Part shown: positions 4,257 through 64,000 of the stretch, piece after piece
How the letters are laid out: each line of letters starts with the position of its first letter
Position numbering within the stretch: position 1 is the first letter of the stretch
NCBI GenBank assembly: GCA_965261635.1
Contig: OZ253463.1
Location: 353,164 to 417,163, forward strand
Source of the DNA: Chloroflexota bacterium
GTDB taxonomy: Bacteria; Chloroflexota; UBA11872; VXOZ01
Direction: 5' to 3'
Length of the DNA stretch: 64,000 bases
The notes under the pieces: model-generated
Told to the model about the DNA's origin: nothing
Seen by the model: only the letters and a program-made list of their open reading frames with translations
The model's database searches: none
Made by a program: the position numbers and the translations under genes

Positions 4257-4847
4257 GCAGGTTGGCGCTTACCTAGGGGCTCTTGCCGTATGGGACCGCG
4301 CATTCGCGGTTAGAAAATCCGCAGCGCGGAGGCTCGTCCCCCGGTTGAGACGCAAACTACGCAGTGTAGGAAGTTGGATTACCGCTTGCGCGGGAATAAA
4401 GGCATTGGATGCACGTGATTCTTGGCATTCACGCCACCCCAATATGCCTATTCCGCATCTGTAGCGCGGGGGCTTCTCCCCCGCTCCGGACCCGGACGCA
4501 AATCACGCGGCGCATGGAAGTTAGATTACCGCTTGCGCGGGAGTGACGAGCTTGTGCACACGGTTGGGAATGATGGCATCGGGCGCATCCGTCTGTCGGA
4601 TCTCATCACCATTAATTAGCGCGCACTCCGCAAGCGCATACGCCGTGCGTTTCCCGGTGCCTCGTCCCCGGCTCTGCGAATTCCTCATGCGGCCAAAGAC
4701 TTTGGATTCCGGGTCTGGGAAGCCATAGTATACACTTTGGGTAGCAGAATCATCCCCTCTCCCCGTGTGAGAGGGCTAGGGTGAGGGCAACAACAGCTTT
4801 CCGTGTCCTCTTCCTCCATGCACACCACGCTACGGGAGTAATACGCA

Positions 4848-5990
4848 ATGAAGATCACGTCTGTCGAGACCTTTGCCGCGCCGATCACATCGCGCGACGT
4901 GCTTATAGTGAAAATAAACACCTCCGAAGGCATCAGCGGCATTGGCGAAGCGTATCCGGTGGGGCCAAATCAGGCAGTGGCGGCCGCGATCGCTGATTTC
5001 GCCGACTGGATCGTGGGCAAAGATCCCCGCGACATCAACGGCATTTGGTACCATATGTACCTGCACTCGCGCTTTCCGGGCGGCTCTGTGATCAACGCCG
5101 CTATTAGCGGCATCGACCATGCCCTATGGGACATCAGCGGCAAGGCGGCCGGGCAGCCGGTGTACCGCATGCTCGGCGGCAAGTGCCGCGACCGCATTCG
5201 CGTGTACCAGGGTTGCGGCGGGCCGACACCGGAAGCCTGCGCGGAGAGCGCGAAAGCGCTCGTCGAGAAATACGGCTACACAGCGCTCAAGATGGCGCCG
5301 CATCCGCCGAACGCGAGCCAGATGTCTTGGAATGCCGTGGTAGCTGCGGCCGGTGATCGCATCGCGGCAGTGCGGGAAGCCGTGGGCCCGGACGTGGACA
5401 TTGGGCTCGATCCCCACGCCCGCATCTTCGAGCCGGCCCGCGCCCTGGAGATGGCGGCAGCAGTCGCGCCTTCCCAGCCGTTTTTCTTCGAGGAGCCGCT
5501 GCGCCCTGAGAACATCGATGCCCTCGCGTGGTTTGCGCAGAAGTCGCCGGTGCCCGTTGCCACGGGCGAGATGCTCTACACGTCGTTCGGCTTCCGTGAG
5601 CTTCTGGAAAAGCAGGCCGCGACTATAATCCAGCCGGACATTTGTGTCTGCGGCGGCCTGACCGAGATGCGCAAGATTGCCGCGCTCGCCGAAGCGCACT
5701 ACGTCAAAGTTGCGCCGCACAATCCGCTGGGGCCGGTAGCGACTGCCGTAAACGTCCACTTTGCCGCGGCGACACATAATTTCATCATCTTGGAGTACCA
5801 CGCCGACGACGAGTCGCCGCGCCGCGACATGCTAGAGGAGCCGGTCAAGCTTAAGGACGGTTACCTGGAGATTCCCGAAACTCCCGGCTGGGGCATTACG
5901 TTGAATGAGGATTACGTTCGCGACCGGCCCATCCGCTCCTGGCACCGCCCGTTCGACGTGAACCCCGACGGTTCTACGGCGTTCATCTAG
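4848..5990 (+). CDS. Enolase-superfamily enzyme (mandelate racemase/muconate lactonizing family; sugar-acid dehydratase-like)
   Basis: The 380-aa ORF has the MR/MLE N-terminal capping domain and C-terminal barrel with metal-ligand acidic residues (the QPD...E...D pattern). Confidence 0.8.
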   Translation: MKITSVETFAAPITSRDVLIVKINTSEGISGIGEAYPVGPNQAVAAAIADFADWIVGKDPRDINGIWYHMYLHSRFPGGSVINAAISGIDHALWDISGKAAGQPVYRMLGGKCRDRIRVYQGCGGPTPEACAESAKALVEKYGYTALKMAPHPPNASQMSWNAVVAAAGDRIAAVREAVGPDVDIGLDPHARIFEPARALEMAAAVAPSQPFFFEEPLRPENIDALAWFAQKSPVPVATGEMLYTSFGFRELLEKQAATIIQPDICVCGGLTEMRKIAALAEAHYVKVAPHNPLGPVATAVNVHFAAATHNFIILEYHADDESPRRDMLEEPVKLKDGYLEIPETPGWGITLNEDYVRDRPIRSWHRPFDVNPDGSTAFI

Positions 5991-6045
5991 GCCGGCCTGC
6001 AAACCCTATGCAGACGGGTGCCAGCGTCCACTTGAGGAAAGGAAT

Positions 6046-6324
6046 CTAGCGCGGGGTTAGCGTGTGGACAAGGACACGTGGGTGTTCGGCAAGCCAGTCA
6101 CTGAGCGGGGGCCTCACTTCTTCTTCCGACAGAGCGCTGTCACCAAAGAGAGAAATCAGATTGCACGCTCGTGCCCACAGTCTGGCATCATAAGACTGAT
6201 GCGGTGTATCGGCGAAGTACGCAGTCTTGGACAGTAGCCACGCAGACAGCGCCTGTAAAGAGAGTGCCTCGTCAAGATAGGCTTGCACCCTTTCGCCAAC
6301 TGTCTCAGGTGAATTCACATTCAT
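6046..6324 (-). CDS. Hypothetical small protein
   Basis: A 92-aa ORF in a short region of ambiguous coding, overlapped by an opposite-strand ORF (6171-6662). I recognise no family. Confidence 0.2.
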   Translation of the reverse strand: MNVNSPETVGERVQAYLDEALSLQALSAWLLSKTAYFADTPHQSYDARLWARACNLISLFGDSALSEEEVRPPLSDWLAEHPRVLVHTLTPR

Positions 6325-6782
6325 GCCTACTACCCGCCTGGATGAACCTGACCGTTTCGTGTCAAAGGCTGAAATCCGACTTCACTTTAATACTGCGTTT
6401 ATACCAGAAAGCTGCAACAGGTGAATTGGTCGCGATAGTGCGAGATGAACACCTAGCTCCAAGAGCCGCTCGCCAGCCTGCAGACACCGTTACTCAAATG
6501 GTAATCTACTACGACGACCTACAAAGTGGAAATCTTCGTCCGGTTGCGCTCGTCCATCAGTACTTGCAGCCGGATGGGAAAATCGGCGGCAGTGGCCGAC
6601 CGGACCCGAAATGGCTGCGACTTCCCGATGGCTCGATTATTGCGGCAACGGAGTCTTCGTGAAGTGTCCGTTCGACCGCTTAGGTTAGTAGGGCGGGGCC
6701 TTGTGCCCCGCCTACGCGGTATCGTTCACCTACGCAATGCAACCGCATTCCGTGTTCGTGAGTGCGTTAGCGAGGCCACCTG

Positions 6783-7532
6783 CTAGTACGTCGCGCGGCC
6801 GCCGCTGAGATCGAAGACGGCGCCGGTGCTAAACGAGCACTCAGCCGACGCCAGCCAGGCCGCCAGCGCGGCTACCTCGGCAATTTCGCCGCTGCGCTTC
6901 ATGGGAATGCGCGCCAGCAGCATGTCCATCTGCGCCGGCGTGGTCTGCTCCCAAATCGGGGTACGGACGACCGCCGGCGTGATGCAGTTTACGCGAATGC
7001 CGGTCTCCGCCAGCTCCTTGCCGAGTGATTTTGTAAGGCCAATTATTGCGGCCTTAGTTGCTGAGTACGGCACCATGTTGGGGTTGCCCTCTTTGCCCGC
7101 AATCGACGCCATGTTCACGATGCGGCCGTAGTCCCGGGCGAGCATGTGGAGAATCGCCTGCTGGCAGAATAGATACGTACCGCGCAGATTCACCCCATAG
7201 ACGCGGTCCAACTCGCTCACCGGCAGTTCCCACAGCGGCGCCGTTTGGCCGATGATGCCGGTGTTGTTTACGAGTATATTGATGCGGTCCCACGCCGCCA
7301 TTGCCTGGTCAACAGCGCGTTCAGCCGTCGACTCCTCTGCGGTGTCACCGCAAACAGCCAGCGCGGTTATGCCCTGCGTGGTGAGCGTTGCCGCGGCCCG
7401 GTCTGCTGTAGAACCGTCAATGTCTGTGATGAGCACCTTTGCACCCTCGCTCCCGAGCCGCTCCGCTATGCCCAAGCCAATGCCGCTGCCAGCGCCGGTG
7501 ACTATTGCTACTTGATCTTCAAATCGCCCCAC
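6783..7532 (-). CDS. SDR family NAD(P)-dependent oxidoreductase
   Basis: TGAGSGIG glycine-rich motif, NNAG, and an S...YxxxK catalytic tetrad. Confidence 0.85.
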   Translation of the reverse strand: MGRFEDQVAIVTGAGSGIGLGIAERLGSEGAKVLITDIDGSTADRAAATLTTQGITALAVCGDTAEESTAERAVDQAMAAWDRINILVNNTGIIGQTAPLWELPVSELDRVYGVNLRGTYLFCQQAILHMLARDYGRIVNMASIAGKEGNPNMVPYSATKAAIIGLTKSLGKELAETGIRVNCITPAVVRTPIWEQTTPAQMDMLLARIPMKRSGEIAEVAALAAWLASAECSFSTGAVFDLSGGRATY

Positions 7533-7744
7533 GTGCTTATTCCTTCCTGTAAACCCCTACCGTAACTTCGCCGTAATCCGCCCGATTCGCCACACCCCTT
7601 CTGTGCCGTCTCCCCCGTCCAATATTGTAGCGAAGGCGAGCACGGCATTCCCATTCCCACCAATGTCTTTGACTCAGAGGCATGATTAGTCAAAGGGGCG
7701 TCTTTTCACCAAGCGGAGACATTTACAAGACACAATGTGCCGAA

Positions 7745-8030
7745 AAGTCCGTTCATGCTGAAACCGCTTCACCAATTTCCCACTGGACCGTTCGCGCTAA
7801 GGCCGCCTCGCTAAGTCTCCGGTAGTCCGTTCGTGCTGAAACCACTTCACCACGTTCCCACTGGACCGTTCGTGCTGAGGCCGCTACGCTAGGTTTCCGC
7901 TAGTCCGTCCGTGCCGAGGCCGCTACGCCAAGTTTCCGCTGGACCGTTCGTGCTAAGGCCGCCACGCTAAGTCTCCGCTAGTCCGTTCGTGCTGAGCTTG
8001 TCGAAGCATGAACGGACGGCTTTGTACACT
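7745..8030. repeat. Tandem array of ~40-bp degenerate repeats of the CGTTCGTGCTGAG...GTCGAAG REP family
   Basis: About 7 head-to-tail units each begin GTTCGTGCTGAGG/AAGGCCGC. The units are contiguous with no unique spacers, so this is not CRISPR. Confidence 0.6.
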
Positions 8031-8361
8031 CGTCACATTCGAGTAAGGCATAACGCGGCGCCAAACTTGTAACCAGCGTACACCGCATGGCCGACGAACG
8101 AGCCGTCGTACGTGATCGCATGTCATGGCCGCAGGTTTCAAACCTGCGCTACTGGAAATAGCGGGCATGGCAGTTTTCGGTTCCCTGTCGCCGTGGACAA
8201 TGTGAGGGAACTAGCATGCCGCTCTGCCTGTCGCTCTTGATGGCAAGGAATTAAGGGCTCTCGTGGGACGGACAATTGCAGAGCACGGCACCGCGCCAAC
8301 AGTTGACGCGAGTCAGAGCAGCTTAGTACCATGAAATTGGTCGCGCATGCGGCGACCGCTT

Positions 8362-8436
8362 TGGGGAATCGTCTAATGGTAGGACAGTGGATTCTGGATC
8401 CATAAGTCCAGGTTCGAATCCTGGTTCCCCAGCCAC
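8362..8436 (+). tRNA. tRNA-Gln (anticodon CTG)
   Basis: Cloverleaf with a 7-bp acceptor stem TGGGGAA/TTCCCCA, anticodon loop TTCTGGA, T-arm GGTTCGAATCC, discriminator G and an encoded CCA. Close to canonical bacterial tRNA-Gln. Confidence 0.8.
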
Positions 8437-8745
8437 ATTTAAAGATCTTACGCCTAGTCCGGCGCCCGAGCAGCCATCATACCTTCCCTCGGCTCTAGCC
8501 CCTTCGGGAATGCCTTTCATTTAGATTCCAAATCTGCCGCCCAATATTCTTAGGCCGGTCTCCAGCTTGGAAAGGGAACGGCCTAACTACGTGGGTGTCA
8601 TGGAATCCACCTACGGTAATTCAACAACAGAGAATCGAGATGCGACTGATTCGCTGGAGACGTACCACTGGGTAAGGGAACACGGACACAAGAGACGCCG
8701 CACGAGCGTGCAGTCTCCATTCTTGAGACCCACATCAGAGAGAAC

Positions 8746-9651
8746 TTGGGCAGAAGCCTGCCAGCTACCGCAATGTGCAATGAATGTAGAGAAGAGCTAT
8801 CCATAAACCTAGTTGAGAATGCGGCAACTGTTGAAAGAAACAAGAGAGTAGGAACAGTTCGCCCCGATCTATCTGAATTTGATATGGAAGGGAAACCAGT
8901 CAGATTCATAGAGATAGTTGACAAGCACACCCCCGAAAGTAATGCCCACGAATTCGCAGTGGATAACAACATTGAGGTAGTTGAGTTCCACTTGAATGTG
9001 CAGCGAGAATTCGTTGGAGACAGACGCAACCGCGCTCTTGATGCCTCGCTAACCGTAAAGGCAAGGCTTGAGGATCTTGCCGCAAAGCGGTTAGATATCG
9101 ACGCACACAATTTGCTTTGCCAGCGATCTAAATGCGAAGTCTGCTCAACCCCGCTACCGCTGCGAACGATAGTTGTCAGTGTGAAAGACTGTTGGAAGTG
9201 TGACCAGAACGTCAGTGTTGCTATCGGTGACAAAGATGGCCAAGCCTTAGAGCAGGATGACTTCACCAACGACGAACTAGCATTCGCCCGGGCGCATGGT
9301 GTGACCCTAGAACGCAGATTCAGTGCCACTGTCGGAGCAAAATACTTGGCTAACGTGTGTACCAGTTGTGACCAGATACAAGGAAACTGGTATCTATACC
9401 AGGACCCATTTCACGACAGGTATAACCTGCCTAAGGCAGAGAAGAGAGCATACGGTCCATGCGACAAATGTGCAACACGGATTTGCTTGACCCACGGTGA
9501 TTTTCTTGACTACGACGGTGAAAGGGAATGCCCTCGCTGCATGGAAGAAGCGGAAAGAGTAATGTGCCCGCATAACCCAGAAAGGGAGTGCTTCTTCCCA
9601 AACAAGTGCAACGAAGGCGGGTGTTACTTCATGAACCGGGCGAGGTTCTAA
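8746..9651 (+). CDS. Hypothetical multi-zinc-ribbon (CxxC-rich) protein, possibly nuclease-like
   Basis: A 301-aa ORF in a lower-GC islet just downstream of tRNA-Gln. It has at least 7 CxxC/Cx4C pairs and an N-terminal acidic/His-containing segment (EIVDKH...HEF). The true start may be an internal Met. Confidence 0.5.
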   Translation: MGRSLPATAMCNECREELSINLVENAATVERNKRVGTVRPDLSEFDMEGKPVRFIEIVDKHTPESNAHEFAVDNNIEVVEFHLNVQREFVGDRRNRALDASLTVKARLEDLAAKRLDIDAHNLLCQRSKCEVCSTPLPLRTIVVSVKDCWKCDQNVSVAIGDKDGQALEQDDFTNDELAFARAHGVTLERRFSATVGAKYLANVCTSCDQIQGNWYLYQDPFHDRYNLPKAEKRAYGPCDKCATRICLTHGDFLDYDGERECPRCMEEAERVMCPHNPERECFFPNKCNEGGCYFMNRARF

Positions 9652-9727
9652 AGTCATGGCAATCCGGGAAGTGATGCGAAGAGCTACCAAGTCCGCGCTG
9701 TAAGGGCCGCGCTCAAGGAGGCCGGGA

Positions 9728-9982
9728 GTGAAAGATAGTGCTCGGTACGCCAAAGTCGTCGAATGGTCCGAGGACGATCAGTGTTACGTGGGCAGCGCTC
9801 CGGGCCTGCTATACGGTGGGTGTCATGGAGAGGACGAGCGGCAAGTGTTCGAAGAGCTTTGCCACATCGTAGACGAAGTGATTGAGCTCTATCGAGTTGA
9901 CGGTAAGCCGTTGCCACCAGCCACCTCCGGTTGCGACATTGCAAACAGGGTGGAAGCCTTGGCTAGTTCTGTCGAACCGTGA
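9728..9982 (+). CDS. HicB-like (UPF0150) type II antitoxin-family protein, apparently orphan
   Basis: The 84-aa ORF has the HicB-N pattern Y..VEWSEDDQCYV..PGL.GC...G...EE.........ELY. No intact HicA is adjacent. Confidence 0.55.
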   Translation: MKDSARYAKVVEWSEDDQCYVGSAPGLLYGGCHGEDERQVFEELCHIVDEVIELYRVDGKPLPPATSGCDIANRVEALASSVEP

Positions 9983-10170
9983 TGTTCGCCCCGGCTACAA
10001 CTGCAACAGTGCTGTCAGCGCAATAATCCGGACACCATACGCGACATCTCGCCCTGACTACCAATCACCGATAGCATTCGACACTTCAGTTTCGATTGTG
10101 TTGGGAACCGCAATTCAAATTCTCAAATACCCTCAGCTACCTCATTGATGGCTCAAGACCTAGCACATCA

Positions 10171-10893
10171 CTACCCGCGGGCGATGTCTGTCGGCAGTAG
10201 GGGCACGGTGGTGGTGCGGCCCCAGACGCGCACTTGGCGGAACCCTTCGGCGTAGGGCGTGCCGACCTGCAGGCCGCGATACTTTGCCACCGTGACCATA
10301 GAATCGATGTAGTCGATGTTGTCGTGCTCCTTCAGCCACGCGTATTGGCTCTCGTGGCACGCCAGCATCTGTCGCTTGGTTTCGATGGTATCGCTGATAT
10401 CCACCCAGAATTCCGGCAGGAAGTCGACGCCCATCAGGGTATCCATGTAGAAAATGGGCACGAGCTGCGCCGGTGTCTCCTGATTCGAGACGAGATGGGG
10501 AATCGTGGCGTCAAAGCTCGCTTTCAGCACCAACTCGCCCACCAGGCGATGATCGTCCATATAGTCGTTTGGCGAATGGGTGATGATTACGTCCGGCTGG
10601 GCCTCGCGCACCGCATCGATCAACCGCGCAATCGCCTCGTTCGTGCTCTGGCGCACGTCGGCGTCATCGATGTCGAGCCATTGAAAGTGCGCGCCGATCA
10701 CGTTGGCGCTGTCTATCGACTCTTGCTTACGCACCTCTTTCAGTTCGGGCGGCATGATCTCCACGTGACCCAGACCGCCGTTACACACGTAGCACATCGT
10801 CACCTGATGTCCCTGCTGCGCATATTTGGCCAGCGTGCCCGCGCAGAGCAGCTCGATGTCGTCAGGATGTGCGCCAATTGCCATCACCCGCAT
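10171..10893 (-). CDS. PIG-L/LmbE family N-acetylglucosaminyl deacetylase
   Basis: N-terminal AHPDDxE motif with HxxH and D residues typical of LmbE-like deacetylases. Confidence 0.85.
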   Translation of the reverse strand: MRVMAIGAHPDDIELLCAGTLAKYAQQGHQVTMCYVCNGGLGHVEIMPPELKEVRKQESIDSANVIGAHFQWLDIDDADVRQSTNEAIARLIDAVREAQPDVIITHSPNDYMDDHRLVGELVLKASFDATIPHLVSNQETPAQLVPIFYMDTLMGVDFLPEFWVDISDTIETKRQMLACHESQYAWLKEHDNIDYIDSMVTVAKYRGLQVGTPYAEGFRQVRVWGRTTTVPLLPTDIARG

Positions 10894-54951: not shown

Positions 54952-55114
54952 GTCTAAAGGATTGGCCTGGCAGGAACACCATACTCTAGCCGTGAAAGTG
55001 CAGTAGTAGCAGGTGCCTTACTCAGACAAATAAAGAGGAGGACCGTGAAATCACGATCCTCACACGTTGTTGCGTATAGTGAAAGCCGCTGCCCGGATAT
55101 TGTATTCAGGGGGC

Positions 55115-55188
55115 GGTCCCGACCGGATTCGAACCGGCGATCTCAGCCTTGACAGGGCCGTGTGTTGGGCCAACTACACCACGGGACC
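55115..55188 (-). tRNA. tRNA-Asp (anticodon GTC)
   Basis: Reverse complement gives the acceptor GGTCCCG/CGGGACC, anticodon loop CTGTCAA, and T-arm GGTTCGAATCC. Confidence 0.8.
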
Positions 55189-55220
55189 AATACGTTCTCA
55201 CATACGCGGAGAACCGTCGC

Positions 55221-55306
55221 GGTGGGCCGGGGAGGATTCGAACCTCCGTAGCCATTACAGCGCCAGATTTACAGTCTGGTGGTTTTGACCGCTCGCCCAC
55301 CGACCC
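55221..55306 (-). tRNA. tRNA-Tyr (anticodon GTA), class II with a long variable arm
   Basis: Reverse complement gives the acceptor GGGTCGG/CCGGCCC (one G-U pair), anticodon loop CTGTAAA, a long variable arm, and T-arm GGAGGTTCGAATCCTCC. Length is 86 nt. Confidence 0.8.
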
Positions 55307-55533
55307 ATAAATTAGGCAGCAAGCAGGTATTCGCTTCCTAAAAATCAGTATAGCAGTGAAAGCCCCCTTTGTCACCACCCCCAGTCGTCCGTACGTGTTC
55401 AACGCATAGGTTCCCACTGATAGCTTGCAAGCATAGCAGGGGCACCAATGCGATACGGCCGCACGGCGCCTGCAGGTGCCTAGTCAAAGCGCAAAGTAAG
55501 GGCGGAGCGGCGGTGCAAGCGTGATGCCTTGCC

Positions 55534-56433
55534 TCATTCCTTCGTACGATTGACGAGATAGATCCCGGCTGCTACCAGCACCGCGCCCGAAATTAGCTCA
55601 AGGCCGAGCGGCTCGTCCAACAGCAGGTTGCTCAGCACAACGCCAAAGAGCGGCGTTACAAAGAATAGCACTACCAGTCGACTCGCGCGGTAGTGCCGCA
55701 GCACTGACGTCCATGCCACAAAGCAGAAACCGGCCACCACAAGGCCCTGGTACAGAATGGCAGCGACGCTGGAAAGTGTTAGCTGATACTCCCAGCCCTG
55801 CTCGAAGATAAGGCTCAACAGAAAGAACCAAGGCAGGCTGAAGAGCATGGTCCAGATCAAGAGTCGATACGGGTGGATGCTCTGCACCAGCCGCTTGGTT
55901 GCGACTACCCGCAAACCCAGGAGAGCGCCGCTTGCCAATACGATAGCATCGCCAATCAAGAGTTCACGTGTGCCAAGATTCAAACTCTCCATAAACGTCA
56001 CGGTGACACCGCCAAAGGCAAGCAGGATGCCCGTAGTTTTCAGGACGGTCAGCCGGTCACCCTGAATCAGGTAGTGTGCAAAGAGGGTAGTAAAGAGCGG
56101 ATAGGTGCTGTTGAGCACGACAGAGCGAGATGAGGTAGTGAAGTGCGTACCCACGTTGAGGGCAATGATCTGGAGCAGAAAAATCAGCGAGAGATAGATG
56201 AGGGGTACCAGTTCGCCCGGTTCCAGTCGGATCCGGACCCGCTGCCACCTGGCCCAGCCCGTAACCGCTGCCAGTCCGATGATGAAACGGAAGCCGGCCA
56301 GCGCCAACGGCGGAATGTCCTGCAATCCGATTTTGATGGCAACGGAGTTGCCGCCCCACAGTAACGCCAAGAGTAGAACAAGCGCTACGATGCTGGCATC
56401 GGGATTGCGGTTCGATCCTTGAGTAGACTCCAT
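55534..56433 (-). CDS. DMT superfamily (EamA-like) transporter
   Basis: A 299-aa protein with 10 TMs and two EamA repeats. Confidence 0.8.
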   Translation of the reverse strand: MESTQGSNRNPDASIVALVLLLALLWGGNSVAIKIGLQDIPPLALAGFRFIIGLAAVTGWARWQRVRIRLEPGELVPLIYLSLIFLLQIIALNVGTHFTTSSRSVVLNSTYPLFTTLFAHYLIQGDRLTVLKTTGILLAFGGVTVTFMESLNLGTRELLIGDAIVLASGALLGLRVVATKRLVQSIHPYRLLIWTMLFSLPWFFLLSLIFEQGWEYQLTLSSVAAILYQGLVVAGFCFVAWTSVLRHYRASRLVVLFFVTPLFGVVLSNLLLDEPLGLELISGAVLVAAGIYLVNRTKE

Positions 56434-56643
56434 AGCGGCGGATCAAGCGGAAAGGGAGGAGCGGAAACTATCCGCTCCCCGCGCAGCGCACATGGTCTCG
56501 TACACGCGTTACGCCATGGTACTTTCTAGAGTTTCTCACCCTAAAACCGGACCGGAAACACCCCTGCAATCGCCTCCGTTGCAACAGCGTAGTCGCTATC
56601 CGGGTCAATTCACGCCGCCTCCCCAGCCAACGCCGGTATCCAA

Positions 56644-56718
56644 TGGAGCCGACGGCCGGATTTGAACCGGCGGCCTATGGTTTACGAAACCATTGCTCTA
56701 CCACTGAGCTACGTCGGC
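56644..56718 (-). tRNA. tRNA-Thr (anticodon CGT)
   Basis: Reverse complement is GCCGACGTAGCTCAGTGGTAGAGC...anticodon loop TTCGTAA...GGTTCAAATCCGGCCGTCGGCTCCA. Confidence 0.8.
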
Positions 56719-56974
56719 AGGGAGATGCCTTTTCAATTGTAGCATACACACCATACGCCACTGTCCGGTCACTATGCGCGGCGGCTATGGCCTCTCGATT
56801 GGGCGGCTGGCGCAGATTCGAGTCCGGGTCTCTCTTGGGGAGGCACTGTCAGTCGCATGGTTGCACACTATCAGACGCGTGTGACTAGAGACTCCGTTCG
56901 TGGTGAGCCTGCCCTGAGCTTAACGGAGTGTCGAAGCACATCTTGAAGGCTGGGCCTATTGACCCCTGAATCTT

Positions 56975-57150
56975 TAGTAGCGCAGGTTTGTAACCTGCGT
57001 CCATTGCCCATACGGTAGCTTTGCAACCTGCGACCATTCCCCGTACAGCAGCTTTGCAACTTTGATCTGCAGTAGTTCAGTTTTGCAGCTTGTGTCCATC
57101 CTCGTAGCGCAGGTTTGTAACCTGTGCCTGCCGGTTGCAGGCGCGATCCT
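56975..57150. repeat. Tandem array of four GCAGGTTTGTAACCTGC-type palindromic units
   Basis: tagcgcaggtttgtaacctgcg / tagctttgcaacctgcg / agctttgcaactttgatctgc / tagcgcaggtttgtaacctgtg. Single copies of the same palindrome occur at 8131-8147, 11003-11019 and 27443-27459. Confidence 0.55.
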
Positions 57151-57211
57151 TGGGCGAACCCTCTTCCCTCAGTGCCCTACCGTCGCACGCCAACCCTCAT
57201 CCCAACGCGGA

Positions 57212-59164
57212 TTATTGCAACGCTTCTGCAGGCGCCGGCCCATCTTCGCGCCTCGCTTGCGGCGGGCCTCCCAACTCGAGGTCCGGCAGAAGCAGGGCCG
57301 CAAGGAGGCAAAAGAACATATAAGCTGTAGCGAAGGTGTAGACGCGTTGCAAGGCAGTGGTGATGCCGGTTTGAATTGCGCGCGTGACCACGGCCGCAAC
57401 CTCTGCCGCCCGACTGCGTAACTCTGCCTGGATTTGGGAGACTATCTGAGTCTGCGCATCGCTGACAATTGCCTCTTCCTGCGCCAGAAAACGCGCTTGG
57501 ATCGTCTTCAGAAGCTCATCTCGGGCAGAAACGGCGGCAGGCGGGTTTGCGAGCACAGTCTTTACCTCTTGCGGGATGAGCGGATTCTGCAACGCCGCGT
57601 CGCGGGCAGTTGTGTCACCGGCGAGCGCGGCCTCGATTTGCTCAAGCGACTGCGCCAACCCCATCCGTACCTGATCGCCAATGCTGCCTGCCTGTAGCCG
57701 AGACTCGAATTCCTTCGGCAAAGCCGGGTCTGCCAGCAACGCTTGGCGAGCGCTCTCATCTCCGATCAGCGCCGCGACCACCTGTTGCTCCAGAGCCGCA
57801 AAGCGCGCCTCTACCGCTGCGGCTAGGTTGCCGATGCTGCTCCCATCTTCCACTGCCAGTCCTCCCATTTGCTCGCGCAATTCCAGCGGCACATTCTCAG
57901 TAGCCGATGCAGTGACGGTCGCGGCGAGCACGGTGCCCATGAGGGCGACGGAAGCTGTGGAGCCCACCTGGCGCACGAACTGCAGCGTGCTCGTGGCAGT
58001 GCCGAGGCGGTTGCGGGGCACGGCATTCTGCACGGCAAGCGTATAGAGCGGCAGCGACGGTCCCAGGCTGAGGCCGATCACTACCATGAGCGGGAGCACC
58101 TGCCACAACGGCGTATCGACACGCAGATTGAAGGCAAAGGCCGCAAAGGCGATGATGCCGAAGCAGATCGACACCAAGAGCGGCTTCTTGTAGCGGCCGA
58201 AGCGGCTGGCCAACTGGCCGCCCAGCATGCTGCCCGCCACCACGCCCAATACGAGGGGAGTAATTGAAAGGCCGGAATTCGTCGCCGAAAATCCCTTCAC
58301 GTGCACCAGATAGAGCGGCAGAAAAACAACGGAGCCGAGGAACGCGCCGCCAAAGAAGAAACTTCCCACCACCGCCCAGCGGAAGACCTTGATCTGGAAG
58401 AGCTTCAGTTGAATCAATGGATCAACGCTGCGCCGTTGCCACCACAGGAAGAGAAGCAAACCGACGAGTGCAAGTGCAGCCAGGCCGAAAACCTGTCCGG
58501 AGAGCCAGGGGTACGTTGAGCCGCCAAGGGAGAGCGCAAGCACGAGCGGCACGACCCAAAGGGCAAGCATGATCACTCCCAGCAGGTCGAAGCGGCCGCG
58601 CTGTTCGGACTGGAGCCGGGGCATGAAGCCCACGAGAAAGATGATGGCAACGACACCGAGCGGCAGATTGATATAGAAAATCCAGCGCCAGGAGAGCAGG
58701 TCGGTCAGGAAACCGCCGAGCCAGGGCCCCGCCACACTGGAGATTCCGAAGACGCCGCCCAGCATGCCTTGCATCCGTCCCCGCTCGCGGGGCGAAAAGA
58801 GCAGGCCAATCAACGAAAAAGCCAGGGCGAATATGCCGCCGCCGCCAAAGCCCTGCAAGGCACGAAAGGCAATCAGCGCCTCGATGCCCGGCGCCAGACC
58901 GGAAAGCGCGGAGCCGGCAAGAAAGACACTCACAGCGGCAAGCAGCACCCATTTTGCGGGGAATAGCTCCACAAGACGCCCGAAGAGCGGCAACCCAATC
59001 ACCGAGGCAAGGAGGTACGCCGTCACCACCCAGGCGTAGTAGTTCAGCCCGCCGAGTTCTTCCGTAATGCGCGGCAACGCCGTGGTGACAATCGTCTGAT
59101 CGAGCGCCCCCAGGAAGAGCGCCAAAGCAATGCCAATAGAACTCAGCCGCTGTACTCTGGTCAA
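57212..59164 (-). CDS. MFS transporter, DHA2 (EmrB/QacA) drug:H+ antiporter family, with a ~200-aa C-terminal soluble extension
   Basis: Fourteen TMs with MFS motif A (G.LaDr.GRk-like). The C-terminal tail has repeated A/Q/L-rich segments. Confidence 0.85.
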   Translation of the reverse strand: MTRVQRLSSIGIALALFLGALDQTIVTTALPRITEELGGLNYYAWVVTAYLLASVIGLPLFGRLVELFPAKWVLLAAVSVFLAGSALSGLAPGIEALIAFRALQGFGGGGIFALAFSLIGLLFSPRERGRMQGMLGGVFGISSVAGPWLGGFLTDLLSWRWIFYINLPLGVVAIIFLVGFMPRLQSEQRGRFDLLGVIMLALWVVPLVLALSLGGSTYPWLSGQVFGLAALALVGLLLFLWWQRRSVDPLIQLKLFQIKVFRWAVVGSFFFGGAFLGSVVFLPLYLVHVKGFSATNSGLSITPLVLGVVAGSMLGGQLASRFGRYKKPLLVSICFGIIAFAAFAFNLRVDTPLWQVLPLMVVIGLSLGPSLPLYTLAVQNAVPRNRLGTATSTLQFVRQVGSTASVALMGTVLAATVTASATENVPLELREQMGGLAVEDGSSIGNLAAAVEARFAALEQQVVAALIGDESARQALLADPALPKEFESRLQAGSIGDQVRMGLAQSLEQIEAALAGDTTARDAALQNPLIPQEVKTVLANPPAAVSARDELLKTIQARFLAQEEAIVSDAQTQIVSQIQAELRSRAAEVAAVVTRAIQTGITTALQRVYTFATAYMFFCLLAALLLPDLELGGPPQARREDGPAPAEALQ

Positions 59165-59446
59165 TGTGTTCGCTCCTGGGACAGCACAACCATGTAATCC
59201 ATCTGTCTAGCTCAAATAAGGTGCGCCAATCAGCAAGAGGGCACACGTGGGAGGGGGTAACTACACAAGGAGACTAACACTTGGCAAATGACCAAGCAAT
59301 TCATGTGCGGGACTATGTCACAGATATGAAGTTCCCACATCACTAGGGTTTTCGTTGACCTCGGCACCAAATGCGCAGAGTTCGGCTCCGACAATGTCCG
59401 CCTAGACCAGGACAAGAAGGGGGGAGGAACTCCCGAGTTTCCCGTA

Positions 59447-59635
59447 TTGAGCAAGGATGGCAGAATTGTCTCGTCATTAACACAATCACAGGTCTTGGGG
59501 AATCTTCCAGAGGCTGCAATTGACTACGTCTTTGTTGAACCAAGCAACCGGGAAAGGGCTACCAAGTGGCTCAATGAGAATAGGGAGGATATTATAGAAA
59601 GAGCAAAGGAGGAGGACCGTGGGTCAATTGAATAG
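59447..59635 (+). CDS. Small hypothetical ORF (candidate partner of the Panacea-domain gene)
   Basis: A 62-aa hydrophilic ORF with only a TTG start and an RBS 18 nt upstream. It overlaps the downstream gene start by 17 nt in a lower-GC islet. The existence of this ORF is uncertain. Confidence 0.2.
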   Translation: MSKDGRIVSSLTQSQVLGNLPEAAIDYVFVEPSNRERATKWLNENREDIIERAKEEDRGSIE

Positions 59636-60170
59636 ACTTGGAAGAAACGCAATAGTGCTGTCGCTTGCGGATGAACTAAAATCCGCTGGAAGCTGGTGTG
59701 GCGAGACTCACTTGCAGAAAGCCGTCTATCTTCTTCAAGAGCTCACTCGTGTGCCGCTTGGATTTGACTTCATCCTCTACAAACATGGGCCATTCTCATT
59801 TGACTTGCGAGACGCTCTAACTGCAATGCGGGCAGACTATCAGCTCAGGCTACTTATACACCCTGTCCCCTACGGGCCCAGTCTTGTTACCACTGAGACG
59901 GGGCAAAAACTCCAAGAGCGCTTGTCTTCTGTTGTAGAATTGCATCGCAAACAGATCGCTTTTGTTGCAAAGCAACTTGGTTCCAAATCGGTGAAAGATT
60001 TGGAGCAACTCGGAACTGCTTTATACGTGAATAAGGAAGACGATTCAAGATCCATAGAGCAAGTAGCACAAAGAGTTAATGAGCTAAAACCGCACATCCC
60101 TATGGACGTTGCTAGAGAAGCCGCAGATGGGATAGATAAGATCATTGCGGCGTATAGCTCTCCCGATTAG
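59619..60170 (+). CDS. Panacea/DUF4065 (SocA-like) antitoxin-domain protein
   Basis: GTG start with a strong AAGGAGGAGG RBS. Motif THLQKAVYLLQ...G..F.ILYKHGPFSFDL matches the conserved Panacea core (KLQKLLYfaq...f.AW.hGPV.pevY). Confidence 0.5.
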   Translation: MGQLNRLGRNAIVLSLADELKSAGSWCGETHLQKAVYLLQELTRVPLGFDFILYKHGPFSFDLRDALTAMRADYQLRLLIHPVPYGPSLVTTETGQKLQERLSSVVELHRKQIAFVAKQLGSKSVKDLEQLGTALYVNKEDDSRSIEQVAQRVNELKPHIPMDVAREAADGIDKIIAAYSSPD

Positions 60171-60217
60171 CTACTAGAAGCTCTTTCCTCTCTCACCATT
60201 CACTGCAGATTACTGCA

Positions 60218-61366
60218 TTGCGGAGTCTTCCAACCATGACAGACTGGCGCGACGAGTTTCCGGGGCTGCGGGGGCGAGTCTATCTCAACACCGCGGCGGG
60301 GTCGTGCATGGGGCGCACGGTGGCCGCTGCTTTACAGCAGTACGCCGATGAGAAATTGCAGGGCGCGATCACGCCCACGGAAATGCAGGTGGTCGAGGCC
60401 GACTGCCGTCAGCGCGTGGCGGATTTCCTGGCGTGCAGCACCGCGGAAATTGCGTTGCTGTCGAGCACCACCGAGTGCGTGAACGCCATCCTGTTCGGTC
60501 TGCCCTGGGAAGCCGGTGACAACCTGATCGTAACGGACCTGGAGTTTCCCAGCTCGATCATTGCATGCTTGCACCTTGGCCGGCGCTTCGGCGTCGACGT
60601 ACGCTTGGTGCGGCATACCGGCGGTGCGGTTACTCCGGCGGCCATTGCCGAGCACGTAGACGATCACACGCGGCTGGTGGTCATTAGTCACGTTAGCTAT
60701 CGCTCGGGCTACCGGGCAGACCTCGAGGCCGTGGCAGACTGCGCTCACGATCACGGCGCGCTGCTGCTCGTAGATGCCTCACAGTCGGTGGGGGCAGTGC
60801 CGGTGGAGGTTGGCGCCGTTGACTTCATCGCCGCCTGCACCCGCAAGTGGCTGCTCGCGACCCACGGACTGGCCTTCCTCTACTGCCGACAAGAGAGTCT
60901 CGACGCCGTGCAGCCCTATTACGCCGGGTGGCGCGGCACTGTGGATCCTCCTTCTGTGGTGAACACCCTCGACTATACCTTCCATGATGATGCCCGCCGT
61001 TTCGAGACCGGGTTGCTCGATTACACCGCGGTCTACACACTGCACGCGGCGCTGGGTTTCTTGAATCAAGTTGGGATGCCATACATCGCGGAGCGTGTGC
61101 TTGAGCTTTCGGGCCAGGTGCACGACGGTCTGGAGCGGCTGGGAATTACGCCGCTGACTCCGCGCGACCCCACGCAGCGCGCAGGCATCGTCTCGTTCGA
61201 AACGCCGCACTACCAGCAAATCGGGGAGGCCCTGCACACTGCCGGCGTGCACGTCTGGTACAAAGATGGGCGGGTGCGCATTTCACCGCACTTCTACAAC
61301 ACGAGCGCGGATGTAGAGTCCTGTCAAGCGGCGTTGGCAGCAGCGGTTGCCGCTGATAGCGGTTAA
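60218..61366 (+). CDS. Aminotransferase class V-fold PLP-dependent enzyme (cysteine desulfurase/epimerase-like)
   Basis: LNTAA N-terminus, PLP-lysine region (SYRSGY context) and the class V fold pattern. An alternative start at MTDWRD exists. Confidence 0.8.
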   Translation: MRSLPTMTDWRDEFPGLRGRVYLNTAAGSCMGRTVAAALQQYADEKLQGAITPTEMQVVEADCRQRVADFLACSTAEIALLSSTTECVNAILFGLPWEAGDNLIVTDLEFPSSIIACLHLGRRFGVDVRLVRHTGGAVTPAAIAEHVDDHTRLVVISHVSYRSGYRADLEAVADCAHDHGALLLVDASQSVGAVPVEVGAVDFIAACTRKWLLATHGLAFLYCRQESLDAVQPYYAGWRGTVDPPSVVNTLDYTFHDDARRFETGLLDYTAVYTLHAALGFLNQVGMPYIAERVLELSGQVHDGLERLGITPLTPRDPTQRAGIVSFETPHYQQIGEALHTAGVHVWYKDGRVRISPHFYNTSADVESCQAALAAAVAADSG

Positions 61367-61387
61367 AGGGGCGCTCACCTACCCCAA

Positions 61388-61440
61388 CGTTGTCGCAGGA
61401 AAGAAAAGAGCAATCACGAGGATTGCCCTTACAGCAGGCA
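61388..61440 (+). terminator. Conserved terminator-like module (gaaaagaGCAATCACgAGGATTGCCC...)
   Basis: The hairpin gggcaatc/gattgccc lies 25-40 nt after a plus-strand stop codon. A near-identical module sits after the ABC exporter at 18781-18830. Confidence 0.35.
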
Positions 61441-61640
61441 GGGTCTTTCGTTTATCACAGTCTGCTGGGAAGTCCGTTCATGGTTCGACAGGGGCTTGGC
61501 GTCTTTGACGAAGTCAGCGTGGCCACCTCAGCATGAACGGATTTCACTTCGTCAAGCTCAGGACAGGCCAAACTCAGAGCGAACGTTGAAACTGGCGCCA
61601 GCCGCATAGTCGAAATGTCCTGGTCTCCGGGTGGACTCTA

Positions 61641-62063
61641 TTAGCGCCGCCGCATGCCGCGCAGCATCAAAAACACACCGCCCAGCATGGTAATGAAGGC
61701 AAGACCGATTTTCGTGCGGTCTATGACCGGTGCAACGCTCACGCCGTGAGGCCCGATGCTGATGACGGCAACCGGGCGGCCGCTCGCCCTGCCCCCGCCG
61801 CCTCCGCCTCCGCCCCCGCCGCCACCACTCGCTTCGGTTTCTTCATCCACCGCGGCGCTTGAAGAGCCGCTGCCCATACCAAAGCCGAAGCCGAGCCCCA
61901 CCGTCACTTCAGAAGCAGTGATTACCGCGTACTCACCGTGCGTTACCGGCTCACCGAACACTGAGCGTGCCTGCGCGGCGGCGATCAAGTCTTGGAGAAC
62001 GCGCTGACTCTGCTCCTGCGAGCTCATCGCGCCGCGTAGTACACTGTCCTTTTCTTTACTCAT
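61641..62063 (-). CDS. YtfJ/GerW family protein
   Basis: Start placed at the internal Met MSKEKD. Has the VGLGFGFGMGSG motif, a poly-Gly tract, and C-terminal AVISIGP..V. Its ATG overlaps the upstream gene stop as ATGA. Confidence 0.6.
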   Translation of the reverse strand: MSKEKDSVLRGAMSSQEQSQRVLQDLIAAAQARSVFGEPVTHGEYAVITASEVTVGLGFGFGMGSGSSSAAVDEETEASGGGGGGGGGGGGRASGRPVAVISIGPHGVSVAPVIDRTKIGLAFITMLGGVFLMLRGMRRR

Positions 62064-62350
62064 GGGCGTGCTCCCCTCTCTCGGATTAACCGAATGATAG
62101 CGATACTGACACATAGCACACCGATCCCGAATAGGACCCGACATATCGTCGCGCTCACATCCGTAATCGATATGCGGCGAGTCTCCGCGCCACGCTTGAT
62201 GAGGACGCCGACCGGCCGGTTCCACAGGACACCACCGAAGGGCAAACGCACACCGATGGCCTGGGATTGCGGCACGACCGTCACGCCGCTTACCGTGACC
62301 GGTTCACCTGTGCCGGTTTCGCGCCGTATGACCCCCTTGCGCCAGACCAT
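62060..62350 (-). CDS. Hypothetical membrane-anchored protein upstream of the ytfJ-like gene
   Basis: A ~97-aa ORF with a C-terminal TM, translationally coupled (ATGA overlap) to the downstream YtfJ-like gene. Confidence 0.35.
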   Translation of the reverse strand: MVWRKGVIRRETGTGEPVTVSGVTVVPQSQAIGVRLPFGGVLWNRPVGVLIKRGAETRRISITDVSATICRVLFGIGVLCVSIAIIRLIRERGARP

Positions 62351-63176
62351 AGCCACTCTCTCACTCCGTACCAAGCATGCCCTCTGTTCTGAGAGTATCA
62401 CAGGTTTGGCCGTATAGGACGCTGGAATAGGACAGGGAAATCGCGTCCTATTTTTGGTTGGTTTCACAGCACCTTTGTCACAAGAAACCGTGATATCATC
62501 CGACTTTCAATAGATTTAGGTGCTCTGGTTGGCGCAGTCGCACCGTAGACAGGCTAAAGACGAGCGCGCTTAGAGGTACAGTCAGCCGGTGTCAATAAAT
62601 AAACCTCATTTAGACGCGATTGCCCTGGGGATAGGGTCTAGGCGTGAAGCAGCGACACTATTAGGCAGATAGGCGACCAAAAAACAGGTACACCGCCCCC
62701 TATCCTTTGCCTCTTGACCATACACAAAAGCATGCACCAGGAATATGACACGCTGGGGAGCATGCCCGCGCGTTGAGGCGCGCTCAGCGCAATGCCGCAA
62801 TGCCCATAACACCTCCAGCCACAATGCAGCGATCAAAGTCTGGCAATCTCTCGCTAGTCTTGGTAGGTTAATGTTGTGCGAAGGCCCGTTTCGCGTCAGG
62901 ATCTGGTAGGTGAATACACGCCAAATGGAGTAGTCGCCACTGCGCCGGTCACGCGGTTAATCCCACCCTGGCTCGTTAGCCCAGCACTGGGCAGGCACCG
63001 CCAAATCACGCGAATCAGAGCCAAGCCAAACACTACCGCAGCCTTCTACCACCATTGAAGAGAGAGCCATCACCACTCCATCCGATCTCAAGCGATCGCC
63101 CAAACGTCCGGGTATAGGGCGGCACGACACTGTTTCAGATGCCGCACGCAAGACCCTGCGCTTTCACTTCAGCCGC

Positions 63177-64000
63177 ATGCTGAGACACGAAGCCGGCTCC
63201 ATCGACGGCAGTGACATTGAAGAGTTGCACGATATGCGTGTTGCCGTGCGCCGGATGCGGGCGGCGGTACAGTTGTTTCGACCCTACCTCCCTAGGAAGC
63301 ACGCCGCCTACCTGCGCCGGGACCTGCGCCGTTTGGGGCGCGCCCTCGGTCCGGCACGCGACTGCGACGTCATGCTTGCGAATCTAGAAGCGTACCGGGC
63401 GGCTTTGCCGGCGCCCACACAGGATGCGTTCGCGCCGCTGGTGCGGCGGTGGCAGAGACAGCGAGAACGATTCCACAATGCAATGGTGAGGTATCTGGCA
63501 GGCAAACGCTATCGCCTGCTGAAGCAACGGATTGGCCCACTCCTAGAGTTGGTGGGTCAGCCGGTAGCGGCTTCAGGAACGCTGAACGGCCAAGCGGCGG
63601 CTCCGCAAGAACCGCTCATTGCCACCGTGACACCGCGCCTCATCGCAAAGCGCTATCAGAAGCTCCTCGCCTACGGGCCTTCTCTGCACGGAGCGTCGAT
63701 TGAGACGCTGCACACCCTGCGTATCGACTGTAAGCGCCTGCGGTACGCCTTGGAATTCCTGAACGAAACTCTTTCCCCGCAGGCAGAAGCCGCCATCGAA
63801 GACTTCAAGCATGCTCAAGACCACCTGGGCGAAACAAACGACGCGTACGTAGCCGGTAAAGACCTGCGTAAGCTCATGAAAAAGTGGCAGCACGCAACGG
63901 ACGACGCGCGTTACCCGGCCGCAGCCAGGGAAGCGCTTGCCGGATACCTCGCGTATTGCGATGACCGCGTGCGGACGAACGCCCATACGTTCCCGGCCGC
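63177..64000 (+). CDS. CHAD domain-containing protein (partial; runs off the window end)
   Basis: CHAD signatures HDMRVAVRRMRA and LHTLRIDCKRLRYALEF. The open frame extends upstream to 62961 with protein-like sequence but no ATG/GTG/TTG, so the true start is unresolved. Confidence 0.65.
   Translation, partial: MLRHEAGSIDGSDIEELHDMRVAVRRMRAAVQLFRPYLPRKHAAYLRRDLRRLGRALGPARDCDVMLANLEAYRAALPAPTQDAFAPLVRRWQRQRERFHNAMVRYLAGKRYRLLKQRIGPLLELVGQPVAASGTLNGQAAAPQEPLIATVTPRLIAKRYQKLLAYGPSLHGASIETLHTLRIDCKRLRYALEFLNETLSPQAEAAIEDFKHAQDHLGETNDAYVAGKDLRKLMKKWQHATDDARYPAAAREALAGYLAYCDDRVRTNAHTFPA

Follow-up and report, generated by a model that had tools for sequence, protein, structure and literature searches.

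The question raised by this locus is whether a short islet of low GC content in a Chloroflexota genome encodes a Panacea antitoxin beside a small toxin, as the initial annotation suggested, or something else. The islet lies in a 64,000-nucleotide stretch of contig OZ253463.1 (hereafter the window, in whose numbering positions are given unless a related contig is named). Its GC content is 0.45–0.51 over positions 59050–60250, against 0.60–0.65 in the flanks; by feature, the values are 0.475 for the 183-aa gene and 0.498 for the region of the upstream ORF, compared with 0.618 and 0.634 for the genes on either side. These two genes, both outside the islet's module, encode a 650-aa MFS transporter (57212–59164, reverse strand; Pfam MFS_1, E 9e-53) and a 376-aa class-V aminotransferase (60236–61366, forward strand, from the ATG at 60236 according to the gene calls in the related contig L001; Pfam Aminotran_5, E 1e-45), and no mobile-element genes are found around the islet. 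The GC scan and the Pfam matches thus bear out the original description of a lower-GC islet (~48–50% GC) wedged between a transporter and an aminotransferase. The same is true of what was said about the 183-aa gene itself (59619–60170, forward strand), which is intact and encodes a standalone "YwgA-like" protein: its GTG start at 59619 is preceded by a strong ribosome-binding site, the Shine-Dalgarno sequence GGAGGAGG (59608–59615, forward strand, read from the sequence), which ends 3 nt before the GTG, and its product contains both LQKAVYLLQ and YKHGPFSFDL.

The 183-aa ORF is a genuine gene and no product of chance: homologues of its protein number more than 3,000 (best E 4e-107), and there are 2,257 clusters at 50% identity. 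An exact copy of the window protein has no entry in the protein collection searched. The protein has all 22 invariant columns of the family alignment, among them W26, C27, G28, T30, H31, K34, Y54, G57, P58, F59, F61, P84, G86, P87, K157, P158 and H159. The family is otherwise unnamed, apart from some members called "YwgA" by JGI, and is referred to here as the HD-associated YwgA-like family after the gene that accompanies it.

That companion gene explains the small upstream ORF. The initial annotation described a 62-aa ORF without an ATG or GTG start that shares 17 nt with the 183-aa gene, and considered it as a degenerate or novel toxin. The ORF is present as described (59447–59635, forward strand; TTG start; overlap at 59619–59635), and it lies wholly within the remnant of a gene for a SAMHD1-like HD/HD_assoc_2 phosphohydrolase, of which the last ~88 codons and the TAG stop (59633–59635) persist at 59371–59635 on the forward strand. 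This identification comes from tblastn, in which residues 365–449 of the intact 449-aa HD protein of the related locus L003 match 59378–59632 (69% identity, E 2e-30), and from collinearity with contig L013 from its position 5753 onward. As a novel small toxin the ORF is ruled out, being 69% identical to the C-terminus of the 449-aa enzyme; it exists as an ORF only because a deletion removed the rest of the HD gene. The intact, overlapping HD gene is thus not in the window, where only HD residues ~362–449 remain: the N-lobe (residues 1 to ~361) and with it the catalytic domain carrying the metal-binding H...HD...D motifs are gone, the remnant retains no start codon or promoter, and no further HD-protein match occurs anywhere in the 64-kb window. 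Profile searches with the ORF return only sub-threshold noise (DUF7946 at 0.017, GatC at 0.018), and it has no plausible Shine-Dalgarno sequence, the nearest GGAGG lying 18 nt upstream. The 17-nt overlap is identical in the intact pair of L003 and, on this sequence comparison, goes back to the stop/start overlap of the two genes in their intact, ancestral state. The ORF is open in eight of eight deletion alleles, with +5/−1 indels in a G-run of the frame just upstream; its polymorphic sites are four synonymous and one non-synonymous, too few to be informative and possibly imports from intact alleles, and its diversity is as low as in the adjacent non-coding DNA. The Shine-Dalgarno sequence of the 183-aa gene sits within the tail of the HD remnant.

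The deletion itself is seen by comparison with relatives. Aligned with L013 (~94% nucleotide identity), the window lacks 1,220 bp (L013 positions 4533–5752) and is otherwise collinear, the junction CACCAAA/TGCGCAG falling between 59370 and 59371 (59368–59373). The missing segment comprises 135 bp upstream of the HD start and HD codons 1 to ~361 of 449. Microhomology at the junction amounts to only 1–3 nt, and comparison with a second relative (L018) gives an identical left breakpoint. The junction is common to six further contigs (L001, L002, L012, L092, L094 and L095), and several samples together yield at least seven contigs with the deletion allele; because this allele has been recovered independently many times, an assembly artefact is unlikely. 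The 1,220 bp were lost by illegitimate recombination in this genome and its closest relatives. To the left of the junction the retained part of the MFS–HD intergenic spacer (59165–59370) is collinear with L013 up to position 4532, and a promoter now driving the 183-aa gene, if any, would have to sit there. Promoter and terminator scans of 59000–60400 return nothing, with no sigma-70-like site in the retained spacer, and no RNA element in 59000–60400 is matched by Rfam.

Relatives show what has been lost. At ~140 related loci a gene for a ~445-aa SAMHD1-like HD phosphohydrolase lies directly upstream of a homologue of the 183-aa gene, with a stop/start overlap. The association holds from both sides. 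Among loci retrieved for their similarity to the 183-aa protein or to its family (102, of which 98 have enough upstream sequence to judge), the HD gene directly upstream was full-length and open in 67/98 and broken or partial in 26/98; among those retrieved for similarity to the HD protein (70 whose downstream sequence spans 560 nt or more), a YwgA-like gene followed directly in 69 and was adjacent but divergent in the remaining one. The HD family matches PDB 2hek over its full length (E 2.6e-50), EF1143 (E 1e-28) and SAMHD1 (E ~1e-20), structures that have been grouped as SAMHD1-like prokaryotic dNTPases (PMC7854603). The pair is patchily distributed over bacteria and archaea and its neighbours vary; at the present locus it sits among metabolic genes (MFS, aminotransferase, CHAD, Ppx), and its GC content is low relative to the flanks in every member of the window's clade, intact relatives included. 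A phage or plasmid origin was considered and is unsupported, with only six matches in IMG/VR and one in PLSDB; in its rarity on phage contigs and plasmids the module is unlike many mobile toxin-antitoxin systems. Literature searches on YwgA, YwfO, HD_assoc_2 and dNTPase with antitoxin returned nothing relevant, and no experiment on members of either family. Together the HD and YwgA-like genes form a two-gene module that is widespread and uncharacterised, and the islet is almost certainly a decayed copy of it, with the HD gene mostly deleted and the downstream gene intact and orphaned. An orphaned gene had been one of the options of the initial annotation, and the comparison with relatives supports it. 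For the window itself the outcome is deflationary: the islet hides no small toxin and consists of a fragment of one gene beside its orphaned partner.

The assignment of the 183-aa protein to the Panacea (DUF4065) domain does not hold up. The Pfam model PF13274, for which membership requires a gathering score of 25.7 bits, gives no match to the protein at E<=1 (the only noise being ARMH5 at E 0.08) and none to 42 family members at E<=10, while a genuine PanA used as positive control (gp27 of Listeria phage B025) reaches 69.2 bits (E 7e-19). Precomputed Pfam domains are likewise absent from all 120 homologues listed, and none of the matches from a BFVD fold search has an E value below 1e-3 or bears the Panacea name. 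What does align between the two families is a short core, LQKxxYxxQ ... [WY]KHGP[VF]xxx[LV]R, in which ETHLQKAxYFLQ...YKHGPFSFDLR of the present family aligns with ELKLQKLIYFAQ...WKHGPVxPEVR of Panacea. The match is seen by hhalign of the two alignments (probability 62.9%, E 7e-5, 45 columns, query residues 24–68 only) and by BLASTP against gp27 (E 0.011 over 41 residues), and the two families are alike in that both proteins are small and encoded beside an effector gene, with overlapping genes. The C-terminal helical domain of the 183-aa family, however, is not shared with Panacea, and the partner of the family is always the same HD family, in contrast to the promiscuous toxin range of Panacea. 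What adjoins the 183-aa gene in the window is a fragment of a gene, not a toxin gene, and its place in relatives is taken by the gene of the HD enzyme, a putative toxin. The specific hypothesis thus fails on its own terms, because there is neither a Panacea match nor a toxin candidate.

The more general idea of a resemblance to an antitoxin domain fares better, since the closest characterised relative of the protein is the C-terminal domain of DarG. In DarT-DarG systems the effector gene lies upstream with a stop/start overlap with the DarG gene, and the DarG C-terminal domain binds and blocks the toxin DarT, rather than DNA. The 183-aa protein, which has an N-terminal winged helix followed by a helical domain, is homologous to this DarT-binding domain over its whole length and has its fold; DarG is its only full-length structural relative. 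The kinship emerges only from the fold and from searches with DarG-family HMMs. A sequence-profile search of the PDB with the protein finds nothing, and identity to DarG of M. tuberculosis (PDB 7yk3) is only 18%. The DarG profiles of NCBIfam and PADLOC match the protein through their C-terminal half only, the NCBIfam score being 34 bits against a cut-off of 250 bits, and there is besides a weak N-terminal match to PDC-M19A. Unlike DarG, the 183-aa protein has no macrodomain (the DNA ADP-ribosylglycohydrolase) and no Pfam Macro match; unlike DarTG, it has no DarT/DUF4433 neighbour, and the partner of its family is an HD phosphohydrolase, not an ADP-ribosyltransferase.

Depletion of dNTPs is an established antiviral mechanism of SAMHD1 and bacterial dGTPases. 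The intact HD gene of relatives belongs with the SAMHD1-like dNTPases (Aquifex 2hek, E. faecalis EF1143 2o6i/3irh, COG1078), but in the window only its C-terminal ~88 codons remain, with no catalytic domain; PADLOC and NCBIfam models of anti-phage dGTPases give HD only weak scores (E 1e-5 to 1e-9) that fall well short of the model cut-offs, and characterised SAMHD1-like enzymes, unlike these, have not been described with a DarG-CTD-like partner. A link to defence comes from 14 of 82 loci, in which the pair has the SNF2 helicase HmaA on one side and HmaB/HmaC (DUF1156 methylase, DUF499 ATPase) on the other, all components of BREX-related Hma/DUF499 systems (E 1.5e-198 for HmaA, 3e-124 for HmaB and 5e-115 for HmaC); the window differs from these in having no Hma genes. 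Term searches of the main text of a 2026 survey of Hma/DUF499 systems find no phosphohydrolase, dNTPase, dGTPase, "HD domain" or DarG, and the pair goes unmentioned there (PMC12839542).

Decay of the module is uneven. In the Chloroflexota clade HD has been inactivated three independent times, by the deletion, by a stop at codon 39 (L013) and by a stop at codon ~78 (L004/L019, whose relatives L003/L005, at 99.5% identity, have HD intact), and the partner is 183 aa and open across all three types of allele. In the set of loci selected by HD, five independent loci have HD broken and the partner intact, one has both broken, and none has the partner alone broken. The resulting asymmetry, eight HD-only events against no partner-only event, is only suggestive, since HD is 2.45 times longer than its partner (p ~0.06) and some frameshifts could be assembly errors. 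The dN/dS of the orphan is 0.11–0.39, but recombination has made the gene a mosaic, so these values are no measure of constraint since the deletion. Early drift is seen in some deletion alleles: an invariant Cys is replaced in L094 (C27S), and L092 carries an insertion of 24 nt that keeps the frame.

Taken with the Hma/DUF499 embedding at 14 loci, the repeated HD-only inactivation suggests, without proving, that the two genes act together in the manner of a toxin-antitoxin or defence module. In the intact module the HD enzyme would be costly and growth-inhibiting, most likely by depleting dNTPs in the manner of SAMHD1 and the anti-phage dGTPases, and the DarG-CTD-like partner would probably bind HD directly and restrain it as the DarG C-terminal domain restrains DarT. 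In the window no HD effector would be left to neutralise; the orphan would either be a relic that has so far escaped degradation, or be retained because it protects the cell when copies of the HD effector arrive from outside. As a whole this mechanism, a TA-like defence module of growth-inhibiting HD effector and DarG-CTD-like inhibitor, is tentative, a serious candidate that falls a little short of being probable; its identity as a type II toxin-antitoxin system in particular may draw indirect support from the DarG-CTD fold, the gene overlap and the recurrent HD-only loss. Combined into a single account, a decayed module copy whose HD effector was neutralised by the partner is the best explanation of the locus and is judged modestly probable. 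A bolder version is doubtful in its entirety: an undescribed TA-like anti-phage module in which a standalone DarG-CTD-like protein, possibly a mimic of ssDNA, keeps a bacterial or archaeal SAMHD1-type dNTPase inactive until infection frees it. Such a module would often serve Hma/DUF499 BREX-related systems as a back-up effector, and its orphans would persist by protecting against a re-acquired or phage-borne effector. The wider interest of the locus is that, in bacteria and archaea alike, the genes of one SAMHD1-like HD clade are essentially always accompanied by a gene for a homologue of the toxin-blocking domain of DarG. Should the partner prove to inhibit an enzyme that depletes dNTPs, prokaryotic SAMHD1 relatives would be regulated in a new way, and the DarG C-terminal fold would, like Panacea, be a reusable neutraliser module.

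The alternative that survives best, though it is rather unlikely, is that the 183-aa protein, instead of inhibiting HD, activates or targets it or regulates the operon, acting as a winged-helix sensor of nucleic acids, a specificity subunit or a transcriptional regulator. Autonomous DNA binding would then let it outlive the loss of HD; its only full-length structural relative, however, blocks a toxin and is not a DNA binder, the stop/start overlap with an upstream effector gene is the layout of DarT-DarG, and recurrent loss of HD only is what would be expected if HD were the harmful half. Distinctly less probable is a housekeeping nucleotide-pool enzyme with an accessory subunit, presumably comparable to the ywfO-ywgA neighbours of B. 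subtilis, which would have decayed neutrally in a reduced, symbiont-type genome to leave a functionless orphan not yet degraded. The "YwgA" name given by JGI, the metabolic neighbourhood of the present locus, the early drift in alleles L094 and L092 and the failure to detect a promoter for the orphan all comport with such decay; against it stand the low GC of the module in every clade member, its patchy spread with variable neighbours and 14 Hma/DUF499 loci, the allelic mosaicism of the 183-aa gene, which is typical of conflict genes, and the retention of 22/22 invariant residues by the orphan. A Panacea antitoxin (PF13274) with a cognate toxin in the 62-aa ORF or another frame in 59200–59620 is hardly credible, for the shared core motif (hhalign probability 63%) and the openness of the ORF in all eight deletion alleles with its four-to-one site count are outweighed by the absence of PF13274 or Panacea-named fold matches when the PanA control is found, by the TTG start with no usable Shine-Dalgarno sequence behind an indel-ridden frame, and by the fact that the ORF is a deletion product from the HD C-terminus whose low diversity equals that of the surrounding non-coding DNA.

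The 183-aa gene (59619-60170, + strand) opens with a GTG that lies 3 nt behind its own strong ribosome-binding site, GGAGGAGG, read directly from the sequence, and it overlaps by 17 nt a 62-aa ORF (59447-59635, + strand) with a TTG start. Both lie between an MFS_1 transporter gene on the minus strand (57212-59164) and a class-V aminotransferase gene (60236-61366), in a stretch (about 59050-60250) where GC content is 0.45-0.51 compared with 0.60-0.65 on either side (183-aa gene 0.475, region of the upstream ORF 0.498, transporter 0.618, aminotransferase 0.634). The initial annotation had described the region correctly. Homologues of about 180 aa number more than 3,000 (best E 4e-107), and a profile search of 1.84 billion representatives returned 2,257 clusters at 50% identity, so the 183-aa gene is clearly real; in all of the best 150 of these 2,257 clusters the protein is standalone and about 180 aa long. 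The window protein keeps all 22 residues that are invariant in the family alignment. A few members carry the JGI name YwgA; in the literature searched no functional study was found of YwgA or of YwfO, its neighbour in B. subtilis.

In relatives the gene directly upstream codes for an HD/HD_assoc_2 protein of 377-452 aa. In L003, a related locus with an intact 449-aa HD protein, this gene (3668-5017) overlaps the downstream gene (5001-5552) by the same 17 nt. The HD protein matches Aquifex 2hek over its full length (E 2.6e-50), E. faecalis EF1143 (1e-28) and SAMHD1 (about 1e-20), and by sequence similarity belongs to the SAMHD1-like family; PMC7854603 groups exactly these structures as SAMHD1-like prokaryotic HD dNTPases. 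The L003 HD protein was run by tblastn against every one of the 102 loci collected as matches to the 183-aa protein or its family, and 98 could be judged, the other four ending at a contig edge upstream: the upstream HD gene is full-length and open in 67, full-length with an internal stop in 9, split or partial in 17 and missing from 5. In the reverse test 80 metagenome loci were fetched by HD-protein similarity alone; 70 of them extend 560 nt or more past the HD gene, and 69 of these have a YwgA-like gene directly downstream of it. The exception, L182, encodes a distant HD (33% identity), with a weakly similar partner (1591-2085, minus strand) that is adjacent and divergent, upstream instead of downstream. 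Two YwgA-like copies (3851-4375 and 6001-6522) lie near a single HD gene in a Solirubrobacterales MAG (L079).

Comparison with L013, a Chloroflexota MAG that is about 94% identical in nucleotide sequence and has the same gene order from MFS to aminotransferase, shows what became of the HD gene in the window. Collinear blocks pair window positions 55001-59371 with 243-4532 and 59371-63998 with 5753-10368; 1,220 bp of L013 are thus missing from the window, namely 135 bp before the HD start and codons 1 to ~361. The junction falls between 59370 and 59371 (CACCAAA to its left, TGCGCAG to its right) with microhomology of only 1-3 nt, and the left breakpoint is the same in comparison with L018. Because the same junction occurs in contigs from several samples (L001, L002, L012, L092, L094 and L095), the deletion is no artefact of assembly but a real allele that is segregating. 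Only HD residues 365-449 are left, at 59378-59632 (tblastn, 69% identity, E 2e-30), so that the option of an orphaned partner, raised in the initial annotation, proved right. In intact relatives the entire HD-plus-partner module is low in GC compared with its flanks (HD 0.50, partner 0.48, flanks 0.61-0.67; L013 and L014), and the low-GC islet is its leftover. This structural and evolutionary account, an HD remnant produced by deletion beside an orphaned partner, is held with near certainty; on its own the window feature is ordinary, a decayed instance consisting of a gene remnant and an orphan.

The toxin role that had been proposed for the 62-aa ORF is refuted: the ORF is the C-terminus of the HD enzyme, to whose intact form it aligns residue for residue (VLSKDGRIVSSLTQSQVLGNLPEAAIDYVFVEP... 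vs VLSRDGSIISSLTLSQILENIPEAAIDYVFVEP...). It is probably nothing beyond a relic, because the nearest GGAGG lies 18 nt upstream of its TTG, different deletion alleles have +5 and -1 indels in a G-run of the frame immediately 5' to it, its low diversity is matched by adjoining non-coding DNA, and a scan of 59000-60400 returned neither an Rfam match nor a promoter-like site. Its polymorphic sites (four synonymous, one non-synonymous) are too few to interpret, and its variants may have come in from intact alleles. The G-run (59415-59425, inside the HD remnant) differs by +5 in L095 and by -1 in L092 and L093; these length differences may be genuine indels or, in contigs of low coverage, homopolymer errors.

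The proposal that the 183-aa protein is Panacea-like survives in its motif and fails as a family assignment. The Pfam check suggested for PF13274 gave no hmmscan match at E<=1, none of 42 diverse family members matched at E<=10, and none of the 120 homologues among the matches listed carries a precomputed Pfam domain. The positive control, Listeria phage B025 gp27 (locus L097), which PMC8832971, the Panacea paper, lists in its supplement as a PanA, matched SocA_Panacea with 69 bits (E 7e-19), and all of its homologues carry PF13274. Profile-profile comparison aligns the window family with Panacea over 45 columns (residues 24-68 of the window protein, probability 63%, E 7e-5), with a core of ETHLQKAxYFLQ...YKHGPFSFDLR in the window family vs ELKLQKLIYFAQ...WKHGPVxPEVR in Panacea; this alignment argues that the motif is real and that the N-terminal core may have a distant common origin with Panacea. 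The shared motif notwithstanding, the protein is not a Panacea-family member by Pfam's definition.

The likeness that extends over the protein's full length is to the C-terminal domain of DarG. PADLOC/NCBIfam matches are restricted to the DarG C-terminal half (positions 165-309/329, E 2.8e-10; 170-320/338, E 1.5e-8), both far below the equivalog cut-off. An AlphaFold2 model built from an alignment of 42 sequences has high confidence (mean pLDDT 94.2, pTM 0.90) and consists of a winged helix at the N-terminus and, after it, a helical domain; its sole full-length PDB match is in 7yk3, the M. tuberculosis complex of DarT and DarG, where it matches the DarG C-terminal domain (Foldseek E 5e-5, TM 0.71). 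By its title, Deep et al. (2023, Structure 31:780; cited in PMC12170906) describes this domain as a mimic of ssDNA by which DarT is kept inhibited. The window protein is not a DarG, because it has no macrodomain and no DarT neighbour, but a standalone version of DarG's toxin-binding module. The underlying two-gene module joins a SAMHD1-like HD enzyme to such a protein as an obligate pair. PADLOC v2 does not include this pair as a system and gave only weak dGTPase, DarG and PDC-M19A matches, and no description of an HD + DarG-CTD-like pairing was found in the literature searched.

Within the Chloroflexota clade HD has been inactivated three independent times: by the window-lineage deletion, by an in-frame stop at codon 39 in L013 (4668-6017), and by a stop at codon ~78 in L004 (2530-3879) and L019 (4668-6017). 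The last allele is polymorphic within the population, since HD is open in L003 and L005, at 99.5% identity to L019. The partner is open, at 183 aa, in all three cases. In the HD-selected set, HD is broken beside an intact partner at five independent loci (L116, where HD at 3001-4293 has an in-frame stop at codon ~118, L151, L153, L155/L159 and L166), both genes are broken in one (L164), and the partner alone in none. Eight HD-only vs zero partner-only events give p about 0.06 when gene length is allowed for, which does no more than suggest that the HD gene is lost first. Another route of HD decay is seen in L085 (5584-6519), where an internally deleted HD is fused in frame to the partner as a single 311-aa ORF.

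Pairwise dN/dS of the orphan is 0.11-0.39. At 59800-59999 (residues ~60-125) the window has 66-75% nucleotide identity to L001, L012 and L013, vs 92-100% in the flanks and HD remnant, and dS reaches 0.74 between orphan alleles with a common deletion junction. The gene is a striking recombination mosaic, which suggests that alleles have been exchanged or have diversified, with the beta-hairpin and first helices of the C-terminal domain as the centre; because of this mosaicism the low dN/dS may be inherited from alleles that evolved beside an intact HD gene. Early drift is possible in two deletion alleles, L094 (C27S, at an invariant Cys) and L092 (3001-3576), where 24 nt are inserted in frame; the 191-aa product of the latter is, at 93% identity, the window protein's closest relative.

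Four observations favour a toxin-antitoxin-like or defence role for the pair, which is assembled from known domain types. At 14 of 82 loci (L006, L009, L021, L024, L025, L029-L031, L034, L035, L037, L050, L069 and L075) it is embedded in Hma, a DUF499-centred BREX-related defence system, in the order HmaA (SNF2 helicase with NOV_C domain, E 1.5e-198), pair, HmaB (DUF1156 methylase, E 3e-124), HmaC (DUF499 ATPase, E 5e-115); elsewhere neighbours vary. Hosts of the embedded pairs include bacteria and methanogenic or ANME archaea. Five of these loci have an unannotated ~194-aa ORF between HmaB and HmaC. The HD enzyme would be the harmful effector and the DarG-CTD-like partner would restrain it, a reading drawn from the partner's sole full-length structural relative (the DarG-CTD, reported to bind and block a toxin), the effector-upstream layout with overlapping genes that mirrors DarT-DarG, the Hma context and HD-first loss. 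SAMHD1 and bacterial dGTPases are established to act against viruses by depleting dNTPs. This inhibitor-effector mechanism is tentative, slightly short of an even chance; a role of the partner as sensor or regulator would fit its winged-helix half equally well.

Downstream, L092 (4921-6576) has an aminotransferase truncated to 250 aa followed by an AIPR gene (PF10592, abortive-infection type) absent from the window, which suggests that the locus is variable. A ~169-bp segment of the window (61304-61472) downstream of the aminotransferase has two tandem matches in L012 (7851-8017 and from 8016), and alignment blocks overlap there against L001 and L002; it is a short repeat of variable copy number. 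A 194-aa ORF on the minus strand (61641-62225) contains a run of 12 glycines, arising from a C-rich tract on the + strand, and its counterparts in relatives match Spore_YtfJ weakly.
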